From positions 1-41,127 of the IMG/VR virus record IMGVR_UViG_3300046049_000082: DNA of 41,127 bases; one strand, given 5' to 3'. This document shows positions 3,353 through 34,378 of this stretch, piece by piece; the stretch's first letter is position 1; every line of letters begins with the position of its first letter. The stretch is from a virus. Lineage: Duplodnaviria > Caudoviricetes. The notes beneath the pieces were generated by a model. That model was not told where the DNA came from, searched no databases, and saw only the letters and a program-made list of their open reading frames with translations. Both the position numbers and the translations under genes were made by a program.

Positions 3353-4648
3353 ATGAACACGGGCCCCACTATCGACCCCGAGCGCCAGCGGACGCTTGAC
3401 GACAACATCGAACTGCACCAGCTCAAGCGCCTCATCCTGGATTCGACCGACGCCTTCGGGAAACTCGTCGCCGATGCAACGGAAAACGAACTCGACATCG
3501 CCACTCAATACGACTTCTCGCCCGAGCGGGGCCGTCTCTTCCGGAACGGGTCGCGCGCCTTCCCACACTACAACACCGTCTCGCAGTTCAGCGACGACGC
3601 CGACGTGTGGACGCTCCAGCCTGACGCCGGCGACAGGATGCACATCAGATCTGCCGAGAGCGTCACCTACACGGTCAATTACGTCCTCCAGCTCTCGCAG
3701 GCGTTCGAACTCAACCAGTCGCTTACGAACGGGGACGTCCTTCGGTGGGCTGCCTACAATGGCACCGACGGGTGGGTCGCCGAGCAACGCGGCGCCGACC
3801 ACGCCGACGACCAGATCGACGTCATTGAGTCGCGTGGTGGCGCCGAAACCACACTGGCCACGGACGTCACCCTCGCCCAGCCGGTCACCGATTGGACGCG
3901 CTACGAACTCCGGTATAACTGGTACAATGTCGGGAACCAGCGCTGGGTCCAGACATATACCGACGACGGGACGCAGGTCAATTCGGAACTCGTCACGACG
4001 AGTAATGACGGCGAGCGTGGACCAGAGACGGCCAATCTCAACATCTGGTGGGAGATCCAAGCGGCCGACACCACCACGAATCTCGAACTCCGCGTCGGGA
4101 GTGGCGGCGCGATCACGCTTGGGTCGCCCCAATCACTGACCCGCGACAAAACCCAGCTCGTCCAAGTGACGGTTGAGGGAACGAACGGCGCTTGGGAACC
4201 CGTGTATGCGATTCGCCTTGCCCCGGACAATCCCAATGTCAACGCCGCATTCTCCCAACTCGACGTCCTCGACTACGCCGCCAGCGCCGACCTCGAACTC
4301 GTCGTCGCGTCGGTCGCCGCCAGCAAGACCGACGCCAGCGGCTGGAGCGTCCCCGAGTACCATCATGCCGCCAGTTCGGCGATTGAATCAACGACGAACA
4401 TCTCGGAGGTGCCCAACGGGTCGGGGGTCCAGACCGACCTTGGGACGAGCGAGGAGTTCGGCGGCCACACCGTCGCCACCGCCGCGAAGATCGATGGCGG
4501 CATCGGCTCGGAATCGGTCGGAACGGCCAACCCCGTCCGCCAAGAGAAGAAGGCGGTCCTTGGGTCGGACGTGCTCGTCGTCCTGGCGCGGACGGACTCC
4601 ACCGGCAGTCAACTGAGTTTCGTCTGGGGCGTCGACCAAAACTGGTGA
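3353..4648 (+). CDS. Uncharacterised beta-rich protein in the head module (possible minor virion protein)
   Basis: 431 aa acidic, Thr/Trp-rich ORF; position in the head module. Confidence 0.6.
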   Translation: MNTGPTIDPERQRTLDDNIELHQLKRLILDSTDAFGKLVADATENELDIATQYDFSPERGRLFRNGSRAFPHYNTVSQFSDDADVWTLQPDAGDRMHIRSAESVTYTVNYVLQLSQAFELNQSLTNGDVLRWAAYNGTDGWVAEQRGADHADDQIDVIESRGGAETTLATDVTLAQPVTDWTRYELRYNWYNVGNQRWVQTYTDDGTQVNSELVTTSNDGERGPETANLNIWWEIQAADTTTNLELRVGSGGAITLGSPQSLTRDKTQLVQVTVEGTNGAWEPVYAIRLAPDNPNVNAAFSQLDVLDYAASADLELVVASVAASKTDASGWSVPEYHHAASSAIESTTNISEVPNGSGVQTDLGTSEEFGGHTVATAAKIDGGIGSESVGTANPVRQEKKAVLGSDVLVVLARTDSTGSQLSFVWGVDQNW

Positions 4649-4657
4649 GCCACCAAC

Positions 4658-5434
4658 ATGACAACCTATGATACCTTCGCCGACGGCATCGGCATCACGG
4701 TCCTCGAATCGGACCGTGGCACCGTCGACAACGTCCAGGAGAACAGCCCCATCAGCATCCACGGCGTGGCCATCCCAGAAAATACCATCCTCGAGGGGGG
4801 CCAAGGCGTCCCGCACGTCTACACGCCGGCGGCGGCCGAGGAAGCGGCCGAGGTGCTGGCCGAGCAAGTCGACGACCCCGACGCGACGGTCCACATCGTC
4901 AAGAACTTCCACGATATCGAGGGGCAAGCCGGTGCCGACGACATCATCGGCGAGGTGACTGCAGCCTCCTATAGCGAGGGCGTGGGCGTGCTATTCGGTG
5001 CCGAAATTACCGACGAGGCGACGGCACAGAAAATCGACCTCGGGTACCTAGACGTATCGCCGTCCGTGGCGCGATCGCTAGGTGACATCGACGAGACGGT
5101 GGATGCTCGCATTGTTGAAGAGGTGGCTGGCTTCCGCGACATCGCCGTTGTGGGGCAAGGCCAGCCCGGCGCCGACGTGAACGTCGGGTCGAACCCGGCC
5201 ATCGAGGCGCTCAGTCGGGCGGCAGTGGGCGACGTCCTCGGCGACGGGTCTGACGACCCGGGGGACGCGCCAGACGACGACCCTGACCCACCGATGACAG
5301 TTGACGACGCAAAGGAGACCATCGCCGAGGAATACGACCTCGACGTGGCCGAACTCGAAGACCGGCTGGAGACAGCCGAGGACCCGGCCCCCGACACCGA
5401 CGAGAACACGATCGTCCTCGTCGAGTCGGAGTAA
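4658..5434 (+). CDS. Putative prohead protease with acidic scaffold-like tail
   Basis: IHGVAI...KNFH...IIGEV...LDVSPS pattern (candidate His/Ser catalytic residues); upstream of the scaffold and capsid genes. Confidence 0.6.
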   Translation: MTTYDTFADGIGITVLESDRGTVDNVQENSPISIHGVAIPENTILEGGQGVPHVYTPAAAEEAAEVLAEQVDDPDATVHIVKNFHDIEGQAGADDIIGEVTAASYSEGVGVLFGAEITDEATAQKIDLGYLDVSPSVARSLGDIDETVDARIVEEVAGFRDIAVVGQGQPGADVNVGSNPAIEALSRAAVGDVLGDGSDDPGDAPDDDPDPPMTVDDAKETIAEEYDLDVAELEDRLETAEDPAPDTDENTIVLVESE

Positions 5435-5503
5435 CGACCGTTCTCCAGGCCCGATGACGCGGGAGCCCCCGCTGAGGTCCTGGACTGCAACCACCTGATA
5501 CCC

Positions 5504-6013
5504 ATGAGCAACCACACGGTGCAGCTTCCAGAGGGCATGACCGCCGACGACGCGCGGGACGTGCTTCGGGAGTACGCACGAACGGACGACGCACAGATCA
5601 CGAACAACGACACGCTGGCGGCCCTCCGCGAGGAGGTCAAGGAGGCCAAGGAGGCCTTCGCGGCCGTCCTGGCCGAGGAGTCGCCCCAGTCGGCAGACAC
5701 GCTCGCCCGGCAGGACATGGATGCGCTGACGGAACCGTTCCGCGACGACGAGGGCGACATCGATGTCGACACGCTCCGCCAGGAGCCGGAGACCAAGTCC
5801 GGCGCCGGCGGCAGCGGTGGCGACGACCCCAGCGACGACCCTGATCCGGATACGCTGTCGCTGGACGACAAAGAAGAACTGCAGCGCCTCGACCGCAAGC
5901 GGCGGACGTTCCGCTCGCGCGGCATCGACGGCCGAGCCGACACGCTCGAGGCAGAAATGTGCGAGCTGGCCGGCATCGAAGACTTCGACACCCTCGAACA
6001 GGAGGTGCTCTAG
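5504..6013 (+). CDS. Putative scaffold protein
   Basis: Acidic, helical 169 aa ORF between the protease and capsid genes. Confidence 0.5.
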   Translation: MSNHTVQLPEGMTADDARDVLREYARTDDAQITNNDTLAALREEVKEAKEAFAAVLAEESPQSADTLARQDMDALTEPFRDDEGDIDVDTLRQEPETKSGAGGSGGDDPSDDPDPDTLSLDDKEELQRLDRKRRTFRSRGIDGRADTLEAEMCELAGIEDFDTLEQEVL

Positions 6014-20516: not shown

Positions 20517-21329
20517 CTATCGGCGTTGGAGTACTTCGTGGAGACGCCCGGCGTTCTCGGGGCTGGGCGTGGCGTCGCGTCTCTCCCAGTGAGCAACGGC
20601 GCTCGGAGAAACGCCGACCGCGTCCGCAAGGTCGGCTTGCGAGAGGCCGCGCTCTTCGCGGGCCGCTGCGAGGTCGCTCCCGAGCGGGACGGTTTCGGGG
20701 TCCCTCGGCTCGGCGGCGGGATCATGGTCGCCATCTTCATCCTCATCTGCCTCGTGGTCGCCGCGGATGGCAAGGCGCTTCGCGCGGGCCCACGACCCAA
20801 ACCGCCGCTGATAGGTGTTCGCGTTGGGGACTCCCTCGGCGTCGTCCATTTCAGCCGCCGTCGGCGGCTTCAACTGTTTCGCTGTAAGCTCCCGGATGTA
20901 CTCAAGCAGTTGCTCGCGCGAGTACTTCGGGGTCTCGTCATGTGGCTTTGTGACGCTGAGCTCAGCAGCTTGCAACGCATCATTGAATGACCCAAAGCGA
21001 CGCGAAAACGTTGAACCGCTAATGTTGAGCCGCTCTTGTATTTCACCCCATCGTGGCGGCCGACCTAATTCGTCTGCGAAGTCCCGAAGCTCATCCAGCA
21101 GTTCCTCTTCGGTGTAGACCCGTCCGTCGTCCCTCCGCCTGGCCCGCTCTTCGACGGCCTCGGCTGAGAAGCCCGCCTTCTGAAGTGCCTGCTCCCACGA
21201 GTCGAACCGACGACGGTATGTCACCTTGTGCGGGGCGTCCGGTTCGTCCTGAAGATCGGCTTGCATCGGCGGGCGACCCTCCTCGCCGAGGTCCCGCAGC
21301 CACTCCAAGAGTTCCTCCTCACTATACAT
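20517..21329 (-). CDS. Protein with three homing-endonuclease-associated (HNH_repeat-type) repeats and a C-terminal XRE HTH
   Basis: Three units of Y(S/T).E(E/Q)LL..(L/I)R.....(R/K)PP........RRF(G/D)S(W/F)..A; C-terminal LAAAREERGLSQADLADAVGVSPSAVAHWER. Confidence 0.85.
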   Translation of the reverse strand: MYSEEELLEWLRDLGEEGRPPMQADLQDEPDAPHKVTYRRRFDSWEQALQKAGFSAEAVEERARRRDDGRVYTEEELLDELRDFADELGRPPRWGEIQERLNISGSTFSRRFGSFNDALQAAELSVTKPHDETPKYSREQLLEYIRELTAKQLKPPTAAEMDDAEGVPNANTYQRRFGSWARAKRLAIRGDHEADEDEDGDHDPAAEPRDPETVPLGSDLAAAREERGLSQADLADAVGVSPSAVAHWERRDATPSPENAGRLHEVLQRR

Positions 21330-26033: not shown

Positions 26034-27104
26034 ATGCTGTGGGACGAGTCGGTATTCCGGGACGGGTGGTTGCCGCAGCGCCTCGAGGGCCGCGACGACG
26101 AACAGGAGCAGCTGGCCACTGCTCTGCGGCCAGCGGTCCAGGGCGAGCCGCCCGCCGACGTCGTCATCTCGGGGCCCAGCGGCGTCGGGAAAACCGCGCT
26201 CGCGAAGTGCCAGGTCGACGACCTCCGCCTTGAGGCCGACGTCTGCTCGACGCACGTCCAGTGTCTCGGCCAGTCGCCGGGCTCGATCTGCCGCGATCTT
26301 GTCCGGGAACACCCTCGTGGCGGCGACCCCAGCCACACCACCTCCGTCGACGATGTCCGCGACGAGCTCGCGACGATCACAGAGCGCCCCTACGTAGTCG
26401 TCCTCGACGAGGCGGACGACGTCTGCCGGACCGAGCTGCTTGGGTGGCTCGAGGAGATCGACGCCGTCGCGACGATCGCCATCTGTCACGATGTCGACGA
26501 GTGGCTCGGCCACCTCGACGCCGCGACCGCCAGCGGCCGACGGCACATCCCCCTGAAGACCTACTCCGTCGACACCCTCGCATCCATCCTCGAGCAGCGG
26601 GCCGATTTAGGGCTCCGACAGGGCGCCGTCGACCGTCGCCTCCTGGAGCAGATCGCCCAGCGCTGCGCCGGGGTCGCCCGCGCCGGCATTCAGACGCTGT
26701 ACGAGGCCGCCAAGCGAGCCGATGCTGACCGTGCCGACGAAATCCGGGGCGAAGACGTTGCCCCCGCCGCTCAGTCAGCCCGGCGCCGGATTCGCGCTGC
26801 GAACCTGTCGTCCCTCCCCGTCGGTCACCTGCTTGTCTACCACCTGATTCAGCAAGCTGGCGGCGGACAGATCTCGGCGAGCGTCCTGGCCGAACGGTAC
26901 GACGATGTCGCTGCCGCCGCGCTCCAGGACCACCCCGTAACGCCGGCAGCCCCGGCGACGCGCCGCCGGTACCTCTCGAAGCTCGAGGACTATGGGCTGA
27001 TTTCGTCGGAGGGCGAGAACCGACACAAGTCCTACCTGGCGCTCGATCCCGACCTCGAGGTGCCCGACGCTGTGGCATTCGGCGTCGGGGTGCCCGAGGC
27101 TTAA
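26034..27104 (+). CDS. cdc6: Orc1/Cdc6-family AAA+ ATPase
   Basis: VFRDGWLP..L.GRD.E, Walker A GPSGVGKT, Walker B VVVLDEAD, Y....L..IL.QR; C-terminal wHTH RRYLSKLEDYGLI. Confidence 0.93.
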   Translation: MLWDESVFRDGWLPQRLEGRDDEQEQLATALRPAVQGEPPADVVISGPSGVGKTALAKCQVDDLRLEADVCSTHVQCLGQSPGSICRDLVREHPRGGDPSHTTSVDDVRDELATITERPYVVVLDEADDVCRTELLGWLEEIDAVATIAICHDVDEWLGHLDAATASGRRHIPLKTYSVDTLASILEQRADLGLRQGAVDRRLLEQIAQRCAGVARAGIQTLYEAAKRADADRADEIRGEDVAPAAQSARRRIRAANLSSLPVGHLLVYHLIQQAGGGQISASVLAERYDDVAAAALQDHPVTPAAPATRRRYLSKLEDYGLISSEGENRHKSYLALDPDLEVPDAVAFGVGVPEA

Positions 27105-27269: not shown

Positions 27270-27491
27270 TCACTCCGTTGCTTCGATGACTAGCGACCCT
27301 TCTTCATAGTCCGCTTTAAGCGTCAGGTCGTCCCCGTCTTCCCAGTCGAGGACATCAAGCATTTCTGGCGGAATGGTCAAGACCGTGCTGCCCCCCGAAA
27401 TCCGGAGGGTCCGTGCCCCCGTCACGGTTTTTTCTTCTGGATTAAATTGGACCCGATGTCCCATATCCGGGAGTACTTCGGGTGTGCTCAT
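27270..27491 (-). CDS. AbrB/MazE/SpoVT-family DNA-binding protein
   Basis: RTLRISGGSTVLTIPPEMLDVLDWEDGDDL; start at 27491 or 27464. Confidence 0.85.
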   Translation of the reverse strand: MSTPEVLPDMGHRVQFNPEEKTVTGARTLRISGGSTVLTIPPEMLDVLDWEDGDDLTLKADYEEGSLVIEATE

Positions 27492-27577
27492 AGGTGCTAT
27501 GAATGTCAGATATAGACTGGGTAGATAAATACTTAGTGGGATAAGATTCAAGTGCTATCCCGTATACAAACCTGAAC
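27492..27577. promoter_or_regulatory. Divergent promoter/operator between two AbrB-like genes
   Basis: AT-rich; imperfect 15-nt tandem AGATATAGACTGGGT/AGATAAATACTTAGT; GTGCTAT occurs twice. Confidence 0.6.
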
Positions 27578-27766
27578 ATGGAATCTGACTTTGAATCTGA
27601 TTTAGGTCCGATTGGTTCCCGGAAGCTCCGGACATCGGGCGGGAGTTTGGTGGTTACCATCCCGCCAGCAGCACGGTTTCAGGCAGGGGTACAGGAAACC
27701 GACGACTTGCAGATTTCGGTGCCTGAGCAAGGCACGATAGTACTTCGACAAATTTCTGATGAGTGA
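27578..27766 (+). CDS. AbrB/MazE/SpoVT-family DNA-binding protein
   Basis: RKLRTSGGSLVVTIPP. Confidence 0.85.
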   Translation: MESDFESDLGPIGSRKLRTSGGSLVVTIPPAARFQAGVQETDDLQISVPEQGTIVLRQISDE

Positions 27767-27833
27767 CCAGTCTCGCGTTCATTGGACACCTATTCAAATA
27801 CCTTCGAGTCCTCGGGTAGACTCGATGCCCACC

Positions 27834-27888
27834 GAGACATCGCCGCCAGCAGGTGCCTCGTCCGCGTTCGAGTCGCGGAGGCGGTCTT
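27834..27888 (+). ncRNA. tRNA-like unit 0 (minimal T-arm element)
   Basis: TCCGCG-TTCGAGT-CGCGGA at 27861-27879; imperfect closing stem GAGAC..CGCC / GGCGGTCTT. Confidence 0.4.
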
Positions 27889-28021
27889 AGCACTCCCGAC
27901 CCGTACCCACATGAAGATGATGAATCCCCGGGCGAGCTTGAGCCTCTTCCGGGGCACTACCAACCAACAAACGCATGCCCACATACCGAACACATCCACA
28001 TTGTTATACGGCCGCTGAACT

Positions 28022-28113
28022 GGCCGCTGAGTCGGTAGGATCGGCTTATCGACGTTCTCGAGATCTGCCGCCGGCAGGTGCTTTCCCCGGGTTCGAGTCC
28101 CGGGCGGCGGCCT
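28022..28113 (+). ncRNA. tRNA-like unit 1
   Basis: GGCCGCTG pairs with CGGCGGCC; T-arm CCCGGG-TTCGAGT-CCCGGG; internal hairpins but no canonical D arm or anticodon arm. Confidence 0.65.
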
Positions 28114-28180
28114 TCGGGCGATTGGGAGCGTGCCCTTCGCGTCCACGGGGCACTGGCACACGCTCCCAGTCGCCCACTGC

Positions 28181-28452
28181 GGCCCCAACCTCCCAGCCGC
28201 GTAACGTTCAAACGACGCCGTCGAAAGGCGCCGTCGTGGGTTGCTTCGGTATCGTCACTGTTGACACCGATCCTCTGGATCACGTCCGCCGACGCAGCAC
28301 CTCACGTCGTTGTTCCCCACCCACCCCCACTCCGACACGATGTGAGACGCGACCTCGTCCCTACGTTTCGCTCGACAACAGCCGGCCGTCGATACGGCGG
28401 TCGGCCCACTGGTCAGCTGGCTGGGCTGCGGGTTCGACTCCCGTCGGGGCCA
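28181..28452 (+). ncRNA. tRNA-like unit 2 (272 nt; tRNA-like ends enclosing a large domain)
   Basis: GGCCCC/GGGGCC acceptor-like stem; T-arm GCGGG-TTCGACT-CCCGT; long-range CCCAGCC (28192) / GGCTGGG (28419). Confidence 0.6.
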
Positions 28453-28485
28453 CTCAGGGAGCCGCGAAGCCCTCGCGGCGTCCCT

Positions 28486-28582
28486 GGCCGCGTGACGACT
28501 GCTACGGCTGCGTCTGTGCGAAAGGGGCGCGGCCTACGGCAGCGGGTCATAACAAATCGGGGTTCGACTCCCCGCGCGGTTT
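28486..28582 (+). ncRNA. tRNA-like unit 3
   Basis: 7-bp GGCCGCG/CGCGGTT; T-arm CGGGG-TTCGACT-CCCCG; one long interrupted hairpin replaces the D and anticodon arms. Confidence 0.7.
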
Positions 28583-28749
28583 TGGGGCCGAACGTAGGAG
28601 CGTTCAGGCCGTTTGGAGGCATACAAACTCGCGTAACCCCGCGGGTGATTCCATGATCCTGCCCCGGCGGTACAGCGACTCTGATTGTGCCCCTTCTCTG
28701 TGGGAACTGCCGGGACGCCCGAAAACACCCGAAGAACCGGCATCGACTC

Positions 28750-28920
28750 GGCCTGATAGCTCACTGGTAGAGTGGGAGAGTAGCGCCACCCCACGTAGAG
28801 TACCCCCACGGTCGACCTCGGGCGGCGCACCCGAGATCAAGGTGCCGTGGTGTGGTAGAGCGGCCGGGGTCCCACCCGGCGGCGCATCGCAACGTCCCGG
28901 TTCGAGTCCGGGTCAGGCCA
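28750..28920 (+). ncRNA. tRNA-like unit 4 (171 nt; canonical acceptor, D and T arms with a large insert)
   Basis: Perfect GGCCTGA/TCAGGCC plus discriminator A; TA; D-arm GCTC-ACTGGTA-GAGT; T-arm CCCGG-TTCGAGT-CCGGG. Confidence 0.8.
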
Positions 28921-29019
28921 TTCGGAATCGGTTGACAGATAGCCACTGCCCACCCGAGCGACCGCCTCACCAAAGCAGTTCGCTTGGGTGGGTGGCTGGC
29001 CCCCGACGTACCCCAAACT

Positions 29020-29979
29020 ATGGATTCGCCAGAGACCAGCCGGGAGAAGAACCCCGACACTGATACCAGCACCGACTACAGTCGCTCGGCTGATAGTCCT
29101 TCGGCCAGCGAGCGGTCGCTCGACGAGCTCGTCGACGCGATCGACGCCGAGACGCTCGAGGCCCGCCGCAGCCGCACCTCGACGACCGACCGCGAAGAGA
29201 TGCCACACTGTCCCGAGTGCGGCAGCGTCAAGCTCCACCACAAGACCGGTGGCCCCAGCGGGACCCGCAAGCCCGGCGCCTACCGCTGTGACGGCTGCAA
29301 CGCCCACTTCGACGAGCCCGTGCCGACCGACGCCGACGACCAGGAAGTCAGGACCGACGGTGGTCACGAGGTGACCGACGTTACCCGCCTCAACAAAGCG
29401 GTCAAACAGATTGGAATCGTCCGCGCGTCGGTCTCTCGTAGCAGGCGTCTGGATCAGGACGGCGCTCTCTTGACGGCTCAGTATCTGGTCCGCGGGGTCA
29501 AAGACGAGCTTAACGACCCCACCACACCCCATGGCCCCGATGCTGACGACCCACACACCGCGACCGACGGCGGGCACCCGCCGGGGGACGCTCCGGCCGG
29601 GAACAGGACGGACCCGAGCGGCGCGGCGGCCACCTACTACGTCGTCGACGAGGCGCGGCCGGCCGTCGTCGACGGCCCGCTCCCGATGGCGCGGGCGAAG
29701 GTACTCGCCAACGAGTACGGCCCGGATCATATCGTCGCCGAACGTAGCGCCATCCAGCTACTCGAGAGCGCTAGCAACACGACCGTCCGCTGGGAAACTG
29801 ACGAGGATGTCGACGTCGTCACCGACGGCGGACGCCGCCTCGCGCGCCGGGATCTCGTCGACGCCGTGCAGGCCGACGCCGGCGTCGGCGACCAGGGCCC
29901 CGGCGGCGGCTGCCCGCACTCCGACGACGAACTGCCGTGCTGGGACTGCCTGACCGACGGCGAGGGAGGATCGCAATGA
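29020..29979 (+). CDS. Modular hypothetical protein with a zinc ribbon (CPECG...CDGC) and several TDGG motifs
   Basis: ATG at 29020 directly after the RNA island; acidic composition. Confidence 0.65.
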   Translation: MDSPETSREKNPDTDTSTDYSRSADSPSASERSLDELVDAIDAETLEARRSRTSTTDREEMPHCPECGSVKLHHKTGGPSGTRKPGAYRCDGCNAHFDEPVPTDADDQEVRTDGGHEVTDVTRLNKAVKQIGIVRASVSRSRRLDQDGALLTAQYLVRGVKDELNDPTTPHGPDADDPHTATDGGHPPGDAPAGNRTDPSGAAATYYVVDEARPAVVDGPLPMARAKVLANEYGPDHIVAERSAIQLLESASNTTVRWETDEDVDVVTDGGRRLARRDLVDAVQADAGVGDQGPGGGCPHSDDELPCWDCLTDGEGGSQ

Positions 29980-32879: not shown

Positions 32880-33022
32880 GCACCGATGCAATTCGGCCGG
32901 AGCGACCCGATGTCAACGAAATTCGTGAAGCTGCCCGCTACGTCGCTGATGCGTTCGACGGCGAGCCGGCCGGCGAACTTGCCGAAATCTACCTCGAATC
33001 AACGGAGGAAACCAGCTCATGA
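32876..33022 (+). CDS. Small acidic hypothetical protein
   Basis: GTG after GGAGGTGA; 48 aa; overlaps the 3' end of the integrase. Confidence 0.5.
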   Translation: MSTDAIRPERPDVNEIREAARYVADAFDGEPAGELAEIYLESTEETSS

Positions 33023-34236
33023 ACGGCGTCCATATCGATGTCGTCGGGGTGGTCGCGGAACCCGCGCTTGGTTTTGATGAGCTTCTCGCGGGCAGCAGCG
33101 TCGTCGGCCTCGATGAGCGAGTCGTCGAGGATGTCCATCGCTCGCTCGATGAGTGCGTGAGCCTCCCGGTCGACGGCCTGGTTGCACTCGGCACAGAACG
33201 ACCGATGCGGGTCGACGGTCGCCGAGCAGCGAGGACAGGGTTGCGATCTGGGCGTCGTCGGTTCGTCGGCCGCCTTGACATCGACGCCATGGGCGCGGGC
33301 GATCTCGCGGTCGGTGTCTTCGCCGAAGACCTGAATGTAGCGAGCCGCGGCGTCGGAGCCGCGGACCCAGCCGTGGTGGTCCTCGATATGGGCCTGGTTG
33401 ACGTTCCGGCGGGCGAGGTAGGCGGCCGAGGACTTCCGGAAGTTAGTTGGCGTGACGGGTTTGGTGACGCCAGCGCGGTCGGCGGCCGAGTTCAGCGCCT
33501 TGTAGAACATTTTATCGGAGATGCGCTCTGGGGTGCCGAGTTTGCTCCAGAGCGGGTCCGTGCCGTCGTCACCGGGATGTTCGGCCAGCCAGTCGGTCAG
33601 GTACTTGACGGCGGGTACGAGGAGGACGCTCCGGCGGTTCTGCTTGCCCTCGACGGTGAGTTTCATCCCGTGGTCGTGGTCTTGACAGCCCCGAACCTCG
33701 AGGTCTTTCAGCTCGCCGCCGCGGAACCCGCCGTCGAAGGCGACGGCGATCAGCGCCCGGTCGCGGGTGTTCTGGGCCGCCTGAATCATCGGCGCGACGT
33801 CCTCGTCCCACAGGAGAATGTCCCGCGGGTCCGGCGTTTTGTCGTAGCTATTCGAGTAGGTCGTTGGAATCCAGGCGATGCTCGCTGGTGGGTCCTCGTC
33901 GCCACGTGGGCCGATGACGATGCCCCCGAAGCGGTTGAGGATAGCCCGCATATCCCGGTTGGATTCCTCGTTCTCGTACTCGGTGTCGATCCAGTCCTTC
34001 AGATCTGCGGCCGCCTCGCGGTCCTCCAAGGCATCGGCGAGAGCGCCGTGCCGCTCGGCCATGATGATGACCGACCGCAGGAGCTTCTTGTGGCGCGCCG
34101 CCGAGAGGTCCTGCGGTCGGCGGCGGTCCAAGGCATCGTCCAGCTCCTCGATGACCGCGCGGTCGTCGGATGCGATCTCGTCGTTGGTCTGGAGGCGGTC
34201 TTGCAGGCGCTCGATTGCCTCGGTGTCGGTGGTCAT
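32989..34236 (-). CDS. int: Tyrosine integrase
   Basis: RDRALI...GFRGGEL, GKQ, FRKSSA, HHGW, ARY catalytic motifs; C-terminal CPRC...CAEC ribbon typical of haloarchaeal integrases. Confidence 0.93.
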   Translation of the reverse strand: MTTDTEAIERLQDRLQTNDEIASDDRAVIEELDDALDRRRPQDLSAARHKKLLRSVIIMAERHGALADALEDREAAADLKDWIDTEYENEESNRDMRAILNRFGGIVIGPRGDEDPPASIAWIPTTYSNSYDKTPDPRDILLWDEDVAPMIQAAQNTRDRALIAVAFDGGFRGGELKDLEVRGCQDHDHGMKLTVEGKQNRRSVLLVPAVKYLTDWLAEHPGDDGTDPLWSKLGTPERISDKMFYKALNSAADRAGVTKPVTPTNFRKSSAAYLARRNVNQAHIEDHHGWVRGSDAAARYIQVFGEDTDREIARAHGVDVKAADEPTTPRSQPCPRCSATVDPHRSFCAECNQAVDREAHALIERAMDILDDSLIEADDAAAREKLIKTKRGFRDHPDDIDMDAVHELVSSVDSR

Positions 34237-34239
34237 GCA

Positions 34240-34378
34240 GCCAACGTTGACGCCAACGGGCAAATAACTTTGGCTGTGAACGTTTGGTCCAAATCCCTCC
34301 CCTGGCTTTCTACCAAATGTTCAACGCCAACAGCGAGTAGTTCACAATCGGGCGGTTCTGCCGGAGGTACGTTGGCGT
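34240..34378. other. Candidate attP
   Basis: Non-coding region next to int; tRNA-3'-like core CAAATCCCTCCCCTGGC (34290-34306); ACGCCAAC repeats at 34250, 34324 and inverted at 34371. Confidence 0.6.

Follow-up and report, generated by a model that had tools for sequence, protein, structure and literature searches.

What is encoded in 1.2 kb of viral DNA that holds no gene? The question is raised by an intergenic island in the IMG/VR virus record IMGVR_UViG_3300046049_000082. The whole record (41,127 nt, with direct terminal repeats) was analysed and is called the window here. The island sits between a divergent pair of AbrB/MazE-like genes and a zinc-ribbon open reading frame (ORF) starting at 29020. 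We find that it is a non-coding array of five tRNA-shaped, non-decoding units plus structured spacers. The best-supported reading, itself partly supported, is that of a polycistronic array of tRNA-capped RNAs cut by the host's RNase P and tRNase Z. It is best supported because homologues covary, RNA contigs lie on the array and t-elements are processed in Haloferax. A first-pass annotation, made from the letters of the window, had proposed such a host-cut array; the proposal keeps this support, its anatomy is corrected below, and RNA contigs that read through predicted cut sites count against it.

The island divides as follows (z, folding z-score):

27842..27886 (+), unit 1, a 45-nt mini-tRNA: 6-bp acceptor, GCAGGTGC mini D-hairpin at 27849-27856, 6-bp T arm, loop at 27867-27873 (z = -1.1)
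27887..28021 (+), weakly structured spacer, one hairpin plus an A/C-rich linker
28022..28113 (+), unit 2, two alternative folds (z = -2.8; -1.7 for the short form)
28114..28180 (+), spacer hairpin of 17 bp (z = -5.6)
28181..28452 (+), unit 3: 6-bp acceptor and T arm on a multibranched domain of ~230 nt (z = -3.4)
28453..28485 (+), spacer hairpin, present in two copies in a related virus (z = -5.0)
28486..28582 (+), unit 4: 7-bp acceptor with two terminal G.U pairs, T arm, one long irregular hairpin (z = -2.3)
28583..28749 (+), structured RNA between units 4 and 5 that lacks a T arm: nested helices, three-way junction
28750..28920 (+), unit 5, full tRNA core
28941..29000 (+), long terminal hairpin, after unit 5 and before the next start ATG at 29020 (z = -3.5 for 28921-29019)

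The five T-loop hairpins reported by the first-pass annotation are all present on the + strand (loops at 27867, 28092, 28433, 28563 and 28901; stems of 5-6 bp). No other TTCRANN loop on either strand of the 41,127-nt window has at least five pairs, and they make up five of the seven genome matches with at least four pairs. A stricter test (GTTCRANYC) gives five in the island and none in the remaining 39,886 nt; among 5000 dinucleotide-shuffled islands, 4944 had none, 55 had one and 1 had two. The five T-arm/acceptor units fall within 1.1 kb, and each, folded alone, forms its acceptor and T arm. Acceptor and T-stem measure 6+6, 7+6 (or 8+6), 6+5 with one mismatch, 7+5 and 7+5 bp in units 1 to 5; the units have the acceptor plus T-stem helix of ~12 bp and the consensus T-loop of the t-element/mascRNA type. 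The three spacer hairpins span z-scores of -3.5 to -5.6. The segments beginning GGCC at 28022, 28181, 28486 and 28750 pair as had been claimed, and folding the units alone confirms it; the GGCC holds for the window and is not conserved, unit-5 homologues starting GGAT, GGAC, AGAT and GGAC. An acceptor had been assigned to four of the T arms, and the fifth (27867) turns out to have one too, a 6-bp helix from 27842.

The stretch is non-coding. The combined aspartate and glutamate fraction (D+E) is 0.03-0.13 in 11 tested ORFs overlapping the island and 0.16-0.23 in nine viral genes; the overlapping ORFs are not haloarchaeal-looking, which bears out the earlier statement that no credible acidic ORF is present. 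The 362-aa ORF 27975-29063 was dismissed (D+E 0.08, no Pfam or PHROG match). ARAGORN finds no genes and no transfer-messenger RNA (tmRNA) in the window, and Rfam gives nothing on the island at gathering score and no RF00005 row at E up to 10, the null outcome that had been expected of both programs. The best sub-threshold Rfam match is mascRNA (RF01684) on 28067-28111, at 25.9 bits against a cut-off of 42.5; the same family scores 20.6 bits on the end of unit 4. No unit encodes CCA or has a canonical 7-nt anticodon loop, both as first described.

Unit 5 carries the argument furthest. The tRNA core set (U8, A14, G15-Y48, G18G19, T-loop, 7-bp acceptor, discriminator) is found in unit 5 alone among the units, in 5/5 sequences of its family. 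Its parts, all on the + strand, are:

28750-56/28913-19 (+), acceptor
28759-62/28858-61 (+), D-stem
28764..28851 (+), D-loop insert of 88 nt, two helical domains
28863-28880 (+), anticodon-type arm, 6 bp with a 6-nt loop
28881-28895 (+), variable region, 15 nt
28896-28912 (+), T arm; the discriminator is A28920

Since the D-stem pairs with a distal GAGC, the insert lies inside the D-loop, after A14. Its first domain possibly forms a kink-turn. The first-pass annotation held that the D/anticodon half had been replaced; this fails for unit 5, which keeps the D-stem, the D-loop GG, an anticodon-type arm and a long variable region. Units 1-4 have no anticodon-type arm. The arm of unit 5 does not offer a 7-nt loop with U33, and homologue loops range from 4 to 31 nt. 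The loop at the anticodon position is not conserved: two positions differ in a 96% identical relative, and all four listed changes in unit 5 fall at unpaired positions. Because the tRNA core is kept and a decoding anticodon is not, unit 5 is a modified, non-decoding whole tRNA, that is, a tRNA-derived RNA that does not decode. It is a natural experiment in which a tRNA core tolerates an 88-nt domain in its D-loop.

Homologues of unit 5 occur on a Halorussus vallis plasmid (blastn, E 2e-11), an Actinarchaeum plasmid and a Halomarina oriensis contig, and in an IMG/VR virus. The five sequences have five different acceptor stems. Overall 94.9% of cells are paired, with 100% pairing in the acceptor, D-stem, anticodon-type stem and T-stem. 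Changes on both sides are seen at 15/35 pairs, compared with 6.1 +/- 1.7 after shuffling (0/500 shuffles as high); kinship among the sequences can beat shuffles and the pair counts are more robust, and the slid control, at 1-4 pairs, agrees. U8, A9, A14, G15, the D-loop GG, the T-loop and A73 are kept in 5/5, as is most of the 15-nt variable region. The insert is 88, 88, 89 and 88 nt long in four members and missing from the fifth. Two homologues exceed the Rfam tRNA cut-off (RF00005), at 48.2 and 38.7 bits. Four further loci that match the unit-5 motif (L143, L146, L148, L149) were excluded from the alignment for lack of a T stem or for an unmatched 5' half. L149 is a low-GC phage with a tRNA-shaped gene (L149:2990-3148) whose anticodon loop is odd and whose variable arm, very long, ends in the short unit-5 motif; the gene scores 26.9 bits with the unit-5 model.

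The first-pass annotation had named three outcomes that would tell against it: no compensatory changes among homologues, a known Rfam family or a conserved protein. The unit-5 family supplies the compensatory changes, and the island showed neither an Rfam family nor a conserved protein. The same data bear on the view that the island is a decaying cluster of tRNA pseudogenes. Unit 5 is indeed tRNA-derived, no unit has a canonical anticodon loop and large tRNA arrays do occur on haloarchaeal mobile elements, but decay is opposed by compensatory changes across stems and insert, invariant non-tRNA sequence, constant insert length and variants confined to loops. For unit 5 this view is already largely refuted, and overall we hold it to be very improbable.

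Introns in the D-arm occur in archaeal tRNAs, and the units might be intron-containing tRNAs that are spliced to decoding, possibly frameshifting, tRNAs. With the insert removed, four of five homologues do give an 80-83-nt cloverleaf that ARAGORN recognizes, but three of these have no valid anticodon, one reads Ala(agc), and the fifth homologue yields nothing. In a search for strict motifs, a bulge-helix-bulge giving a 68-100-nt product was absent in 5/5. The loop varies between close strains, and a 342-nt RNA contig (below) retains the insert. Splicing to a working tRNA is thus a highly improbable account. The units could also be attP relics, duplicated 3' halves of host tRNAs, in a virus that has a tyrosine integrase; the array on the Halorussus plasmid even follows a tyrosine recombinase gene. 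Against this, every unit brings a covarying 5' strand of its own, the integrase lies 4 kb off, and the last 35 nt, compared with 217 tRNA 3' ends of other haloarchaea, share exact matches of at most 11-18 nt, within the T arm. The chance of this origin is close to negligible.

Unit 2 has two folds. The long one, which begins at 28022 and pairs as first described, has an 8-bp acceptor and two hairpins and is 5.6 kcal/mol lower. Its rival is a 46-nt mini fold (28067-28112) with a 7-bp Watson-Crick acceptor, GCAGGTGC at 28074-28081 and a 6-bp T arm. GCAGGTGC is a two-pair hairpin that retains a D-loop-like GG, and it is buried in the long fold. Unit 1 and the short fold of unit 2 have a common order: GCCGCC, GCAGGTGC, 6-bp T arm. 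Part of unit 1 (27842-27878) is common to a related viral contig in the halite sequencing run X3.

We scanned viral contigs for GCAGGTGC before a T-loop, the motif but not the acceptor helix being part of the query. At least 120 loci were found: 52 in tRNAs, 21 stemless and 47 with non-tRNA T arms. Among the 20 distinct compact matches listed, there are 12 in which an acceptor of 6-8 bp stacks on the T arm; these are the two window units and 10 phage sequences from about three lineages. The motif also occurs inside larger units of L147 and the Halorussus plasmid. Since the mini fold matches unit 1 and the phage mini-tRNAs, the short fold is favoured as the conserved form; unit 2 is probably a mini-tRNA of ~45 nt like unit 1, and a switch between both folds is possible. 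The bacterial phage examples are intergenic and 45-50 nt long (L203:1989-2037, L248:1988-2034, L268:1992-2039, L005:2482-2522 and 3381-3421), and no Rfam family was found on the seven loci checked. A type II hammerhead (L203:2639-2707) and a gut-2 RNA (L248:1237-1284) lie within 1 kb of phage mini-tRNAs.

The structured RNA between units 4 and 5 also shows paired changes. With the hairpin 28629-28644 imposed, 7/7 paired changes in halite run X14 retain pairing, two of them double; that hairpin was picked from those same changes, and the unconstrained fold retains pairing for 2/9. Helix 28597-28682, which was not so picked, is preserved by two further changes, and one change in run X10 disrupts a peripheral pair. 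An exact pattern for 28583-28749 has no match in viral contigs. Likenesses of this piece to a cobalamin riboswitch, hammerhead or box C/D RNA were considered and found no Rfam support.

These large domains could themselves be catalytic RNAs or base-pairing guides (ribozyme, modification guide or CRISPR decoy), with the tRNA parts as handles only. Such a role would suit the large multibranched domains, the C-rich 19-nt loop in the unit 3 domain, the possible kink-turn in the unit-5 insert and the invariant single-stranded variable region. However, the island has no match to an Rfam ribozyme, sRNA guide or CRISPR repeat at E up to 10, and no antisense match over 16 nt elsewhere in the viral genome, the comparison being confined to the virus, with host transcripts outside it. 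We regard this role as decidedly unlikely. A 10-nt complementarity links the unit-3 C-rich loop (28317-28326) with the terminal hairpin's 3' strand (28986-28995), a possible long-range alternative pairing.

Unit families recur, mixed, in arrays of two to four units in intergenic gaps of haloarchaeal plasmids and contigs. The Halorussus plasmid has four units in a 590-nt gap: mini, second family, unit 5 and third family. The Halobaculum plasmid has mini, second-family and third-family units, and the Halomarina contig a third-family unit and unit 5. The third family stands by itself in HATV-3 and in genome G046; in G046 a mini unit follows one gene later. Two families add to those of the window:

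second family, 173-181 nt (Halorussus and Halobaculum plasmids): L138:7822-8002, L139:3872-4045
third family, 143-185 nt (HATV-3, Halomarina, G046, both plasmids): L138:8178-8321, L139:4048-4231, L141:4007-4162, L144:3166-3310, L330:1501-1669

The third family is not in the window; in HATV-3 and on the Halobaculum plasmid it overlaps the starts of annotated proteins. Closer to the window, in a halite relative whose orc1 is 91% identical, the core of unit 1 comes with other units, then unit 4, the piece 28583-28749 and unit 5, after which the hairpin 28453-28485 occurs as a second copy. Another has 28687-28745 and then a different tRNA-like start. Unit 4 is also found in relatives with different neighbouring units. 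The modules are reshuffled between mobile elements. No protein is common to all seven carriers compared. Single intergenic t-element-like units (L156, L158, L138, L142, L326) are scattered over the Halorussus plasmid, HRTV-27 and the Halobaculum plasmid, several of them only 1-6 nt ahead of a start codon.

Wider searches returned little. blastn of the island at E 0.001 hit 6/401 Halobacteria genomes, one of them with the true unit-5 homologue; of the hits in the other five, four resemble chance matches to coding sequence and one falls on a T arm at the end of a contig. Against phages, the island gave matches of T-arm length only, and blastn of units 3-4 against plasmids gave short chance matches only. 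The unit-5 model hit 1/151 genomes (a training sequence) and 0/80 in a second set, with 18-35 candidates scored per genome and the second search run without a positive control, so these counts speak for rarity there, not absence. A companion-family model hit 3/151 (two training sequences, one new) and 0/80. Searches of viral contigs with AbrB, Orc1 and ORF 29020, and an Orc1 alignment of genome contigs, found no close array-bearing relative; close Orc1 relatives are encoded on 10-48-kb contigs. No array was seen at 11 loci of distant Orc1 relatives or within 5 kb of orc1 in BJ1, ChaoS9, Humcor1 and HJTV-4. Pattern matches in metagenomes were rejected as bacterial tRNA-Cys (104/120 were so called; most of the remaining 16 were tRNA-Cys ends, truncated or of att type). 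A tandem T-arm pattern in 225/301 genomes was likewise set aside, its matches being mostly genuine tRNA arrays and chromosomal tRNAs with inverted repeats behind them. On haloarchaeal chromosomes, an inverted-repeat element with a copy or complement of the T arm often comes after a tRNA gene.

Array sequence occurs in RNA libraries. Fourteen halite runs contain part of the stretch, three of them RNA; five of the 14 were examined in detail, and X10 and X11, with identical contigs and depths, are counted once. Over 3.6 kb the X10/X11 RNA gave two contigs, each of them in the array; the viral orc1 gene, which DNA run X3 from the same sample covers, had none. The alignment of one of the two, 342 nt long, begins at 28583, the first base past unit 4, and ends at 28920, the unit 5 discriminator, with one unaligned letter before and three after. 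An X3 DNA contig with the same 11 listed variants aligns on to 28926. The ends of the 342-nt contig fit tRNase Z cuts plus addition of a presumed CCA, which is a weak hint of processing.

In the proposed mechanism, one precursor would be made from a promoter at or upstream of 27790. The transcript could start from TTCAAATA, a TATA-like candidate promoter present at 27793..27800 (+) as first reported, or come by readthrough from the upstream AbrB-like gene. RNase P would then probably cut 5' at the acceptor starts and tRNase Z 3' after the discriminators, and CCA would fairly probably be added to the products. Mini units 1 and 2 would serve mainly as cutting marks, and units 3-5 as tRNA scaffolds that protect and display cargo domains; the inter-unit pieces (28583-28749 and the hairpins) would be freed with defined ends. 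More tentatively, the products may act in trans, early in infection, by binding proteins and not as base-pairing guides: they would be decoys or scaffolds for host factors able to recognize tRNA shape or kink-turns. Candidate partners are tRNA-modifying toxins or defence enzymes and translation or maturation factors. Host proteins are proposed as partners because no viral partner is shared, the best antisense match is 16 nt and conservation is mostly structural. The explanation as a whole, host-cut and stable tRNA-capped RNAs whose domains bind host proteins, is one we favour by a little.

Several points weigh against it. Units 1-3 depart from 7+5 geometry. When the whole island is folded, the acceptor helix has a probability of 0.04 in unit 5, 0.0 in unit 1 and ~0.3 in units 3-4; most acceptor helices being improbable in the 1.2-kb fold, thermodynamics alone is no proof of the units. 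The unit-5 covariation comes from five related sequences found partly with motifs of unit 5 itself, and units 3 and 4 have no homologue outside halite runs. The 342-nt contig reads across the predicted cut site at 28750, a 287-nt RNA contig crosses the 3' end of one unit into unit 4, and an X14 RNA contig crosses 28181. Since orc1 is covered in X14 too, that run may contain carried-over DNA, and contigs cannot show ends, strand or level. Cleavage of the array by RNase P and tRNase Z, though likely, is a prediction, and the binding of host proteins by the released RNAs is a proposal.

The cleavage step has close precedents. In Haloferax volcanii, RNA placed between two t-elements is released in vivo by RNase P and tRNase Z, the t-element being a tRNA-like element upstream of 5S rRNA and the constructs engineered t-element-CRISPR RNA (crRNA)-t-element cassettes (PMC4326828, PMC4946936). 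The array resembles these in that tRNA-like units flank cargo RNA in a haloarchaeal transcript, and units 1 and 2 belong to their small type. Unlike them, the array is natural and viral, has five units in tandem from several unrelated families, and also carries cargo inside the tRNA fold. MALAT1 mascRNA/menRNA (RF01684) likewise uses a tRNA top half as a processing handle that frees another RNA, but it is eukaryotic, has one unit per transcript and no large D-loop insert, and the window scores far below its cut-off. Gammaherpesvirus TMERs use the tRNA top half as a processing handle too. In engineered tRNA scaffolds, polycistronic tRNA-guide arrays and mitochondrial tRNA punctuation, cargo is inserted in tRNA folds or freed between them by RNase P and RNase Z. 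Those systems use real tRNAs or are man-made, whereas the window units are non-decoding and evolved in mobile elements; the array is likely a natural version of the tRNA-scaffold expression trick.

Other tRNA-like RNAs fit less well. Y RNAs (YrlA, RF02553), which act with Ro60, are also non-decoding tRNA mimics with D and T arms on mobile elements, but their acceptor is closed by a loop and Ro60 is adjacent, whereas the acceptor ends of the window units are free. The island has no YrlA match and the virus no TROVE gene; one of five other carriers has a TROVE gene, on a different contig from its unit. Large haloarchaeal tRNA arrays (L190-L198, e.g. L195:3500-3960, 4139-5668) finish with two to five repeats of a non-tRNA unit whose acceptor is closed by a loop, and a TROVE/Ro60 gene comes directly after; these units score 31 bits with YrlA (cut-off 69) and are likely archaeal Y RNAs. 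Unit 3 resembles tmRNA in its order of acceptor, short linker, long helix into a large domain, and T arm. It differs in lacking G3.U70 (pair 3-70 is C-G in units 3 and 5) and has no ARAGORN or RF00023 call; tmRNA is not known from archaea. By the tests run, the array works like t-element/mascRNA processing and does not belong with decoding tRNAs, spliced tRNAs, Y RNAs or tmRNA. A search of the literature, mostly without subscription journals, found no such arrays described in archaeal viruses or plasmids, and in the parts of PMC10690425 examined only two candidate RNAs list Halobacteria hosts, both pleolipoviruses.

The main rival accepts the cuts and gives them another use: the units would be only cis punctuation of an early transcript, uncoupling or stabilizing the neighbouring mRNAs or making them leaderless. 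Units 1-6 nt before start codons suggest that tRNase Z could make leaderless mRNAs: the ATG of a plausible gene falls at that distance after the discriminator in 5/26 units examined, a count taken without a chance control. Single units between genes in several mobile elements, mini units after stop codons in L139 and L330, and arrays that are often near an operon head beside a divergent regulator are also in its favour. But one cut mark would be enough for punctuation, and the window has five units over a gene-free 1.2 kb; its units never have an acidic-ORF start codon nearer than 99 nt, and cargo is kept in both length (88/88/89/88 nt) and structure. We judge punctuation alone to be unlikely, and retain the array of host-cut, tRNA-capped RNAs as the preferred explanation.

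If this is true, archaeal mobile elements naturally use tRNA folds as both scaffolds and cutting marks, with several stable non-coding RNAs per transcript, a use for which one rRNA element and engineered cassettes are the main examples in Haloferax. tRNA finders miss the units, which go unannotated or are mis-annotated as protein starts (HATV-3, two plasmids). A broader system is conceivable, though doubtful: a modular RNA system of haloarchaeal viruses and plasmids, with at least four families seen, in which shuffled tRNA-scaffolded effector RNAs matured by RNase P, tRNase Z and the CCA enzyme would neutralize defence or redirect translation. It would do with RNA what phage anti-defence islands do with small proteins, and would share its mini-tRNA cutting mark with bacterial phages. 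Because homologues exist in a cultured virus and strains, and Haloferax genetics and purified enzymes are available, processing, aminoacylation and partners are directly testable.

The remainder of the window gives the setting. The virus encodes terminase, portal, major capsid and tape-measure genes and acidic proteins; together with Orc1/Cdc6 and an integrase, these genes indicate a temperate haloarchaeal tailed virus. Genes referred to above are:

26034-27104, Orc1/Cdc6 gene, its product 38-40% identical to Orc1 of BJ1 and ChaoS9
27270..27551 (-), AbrB/MazE-like gene (PF04014), leftward member of the divergent pair, flanking and outside the RNA
27578..27766 (+), AbrB/MazE-like gene (PF04014), flanking, directly 5' of the array
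32989-34263, tyrosine integrase

The AbrB pair may be a lysogeny switch. A protein encoded at 20517-21329 (-), with three HNH-associated repeats and a C-terminal helix-turn-helix, is probably a viral repressor.

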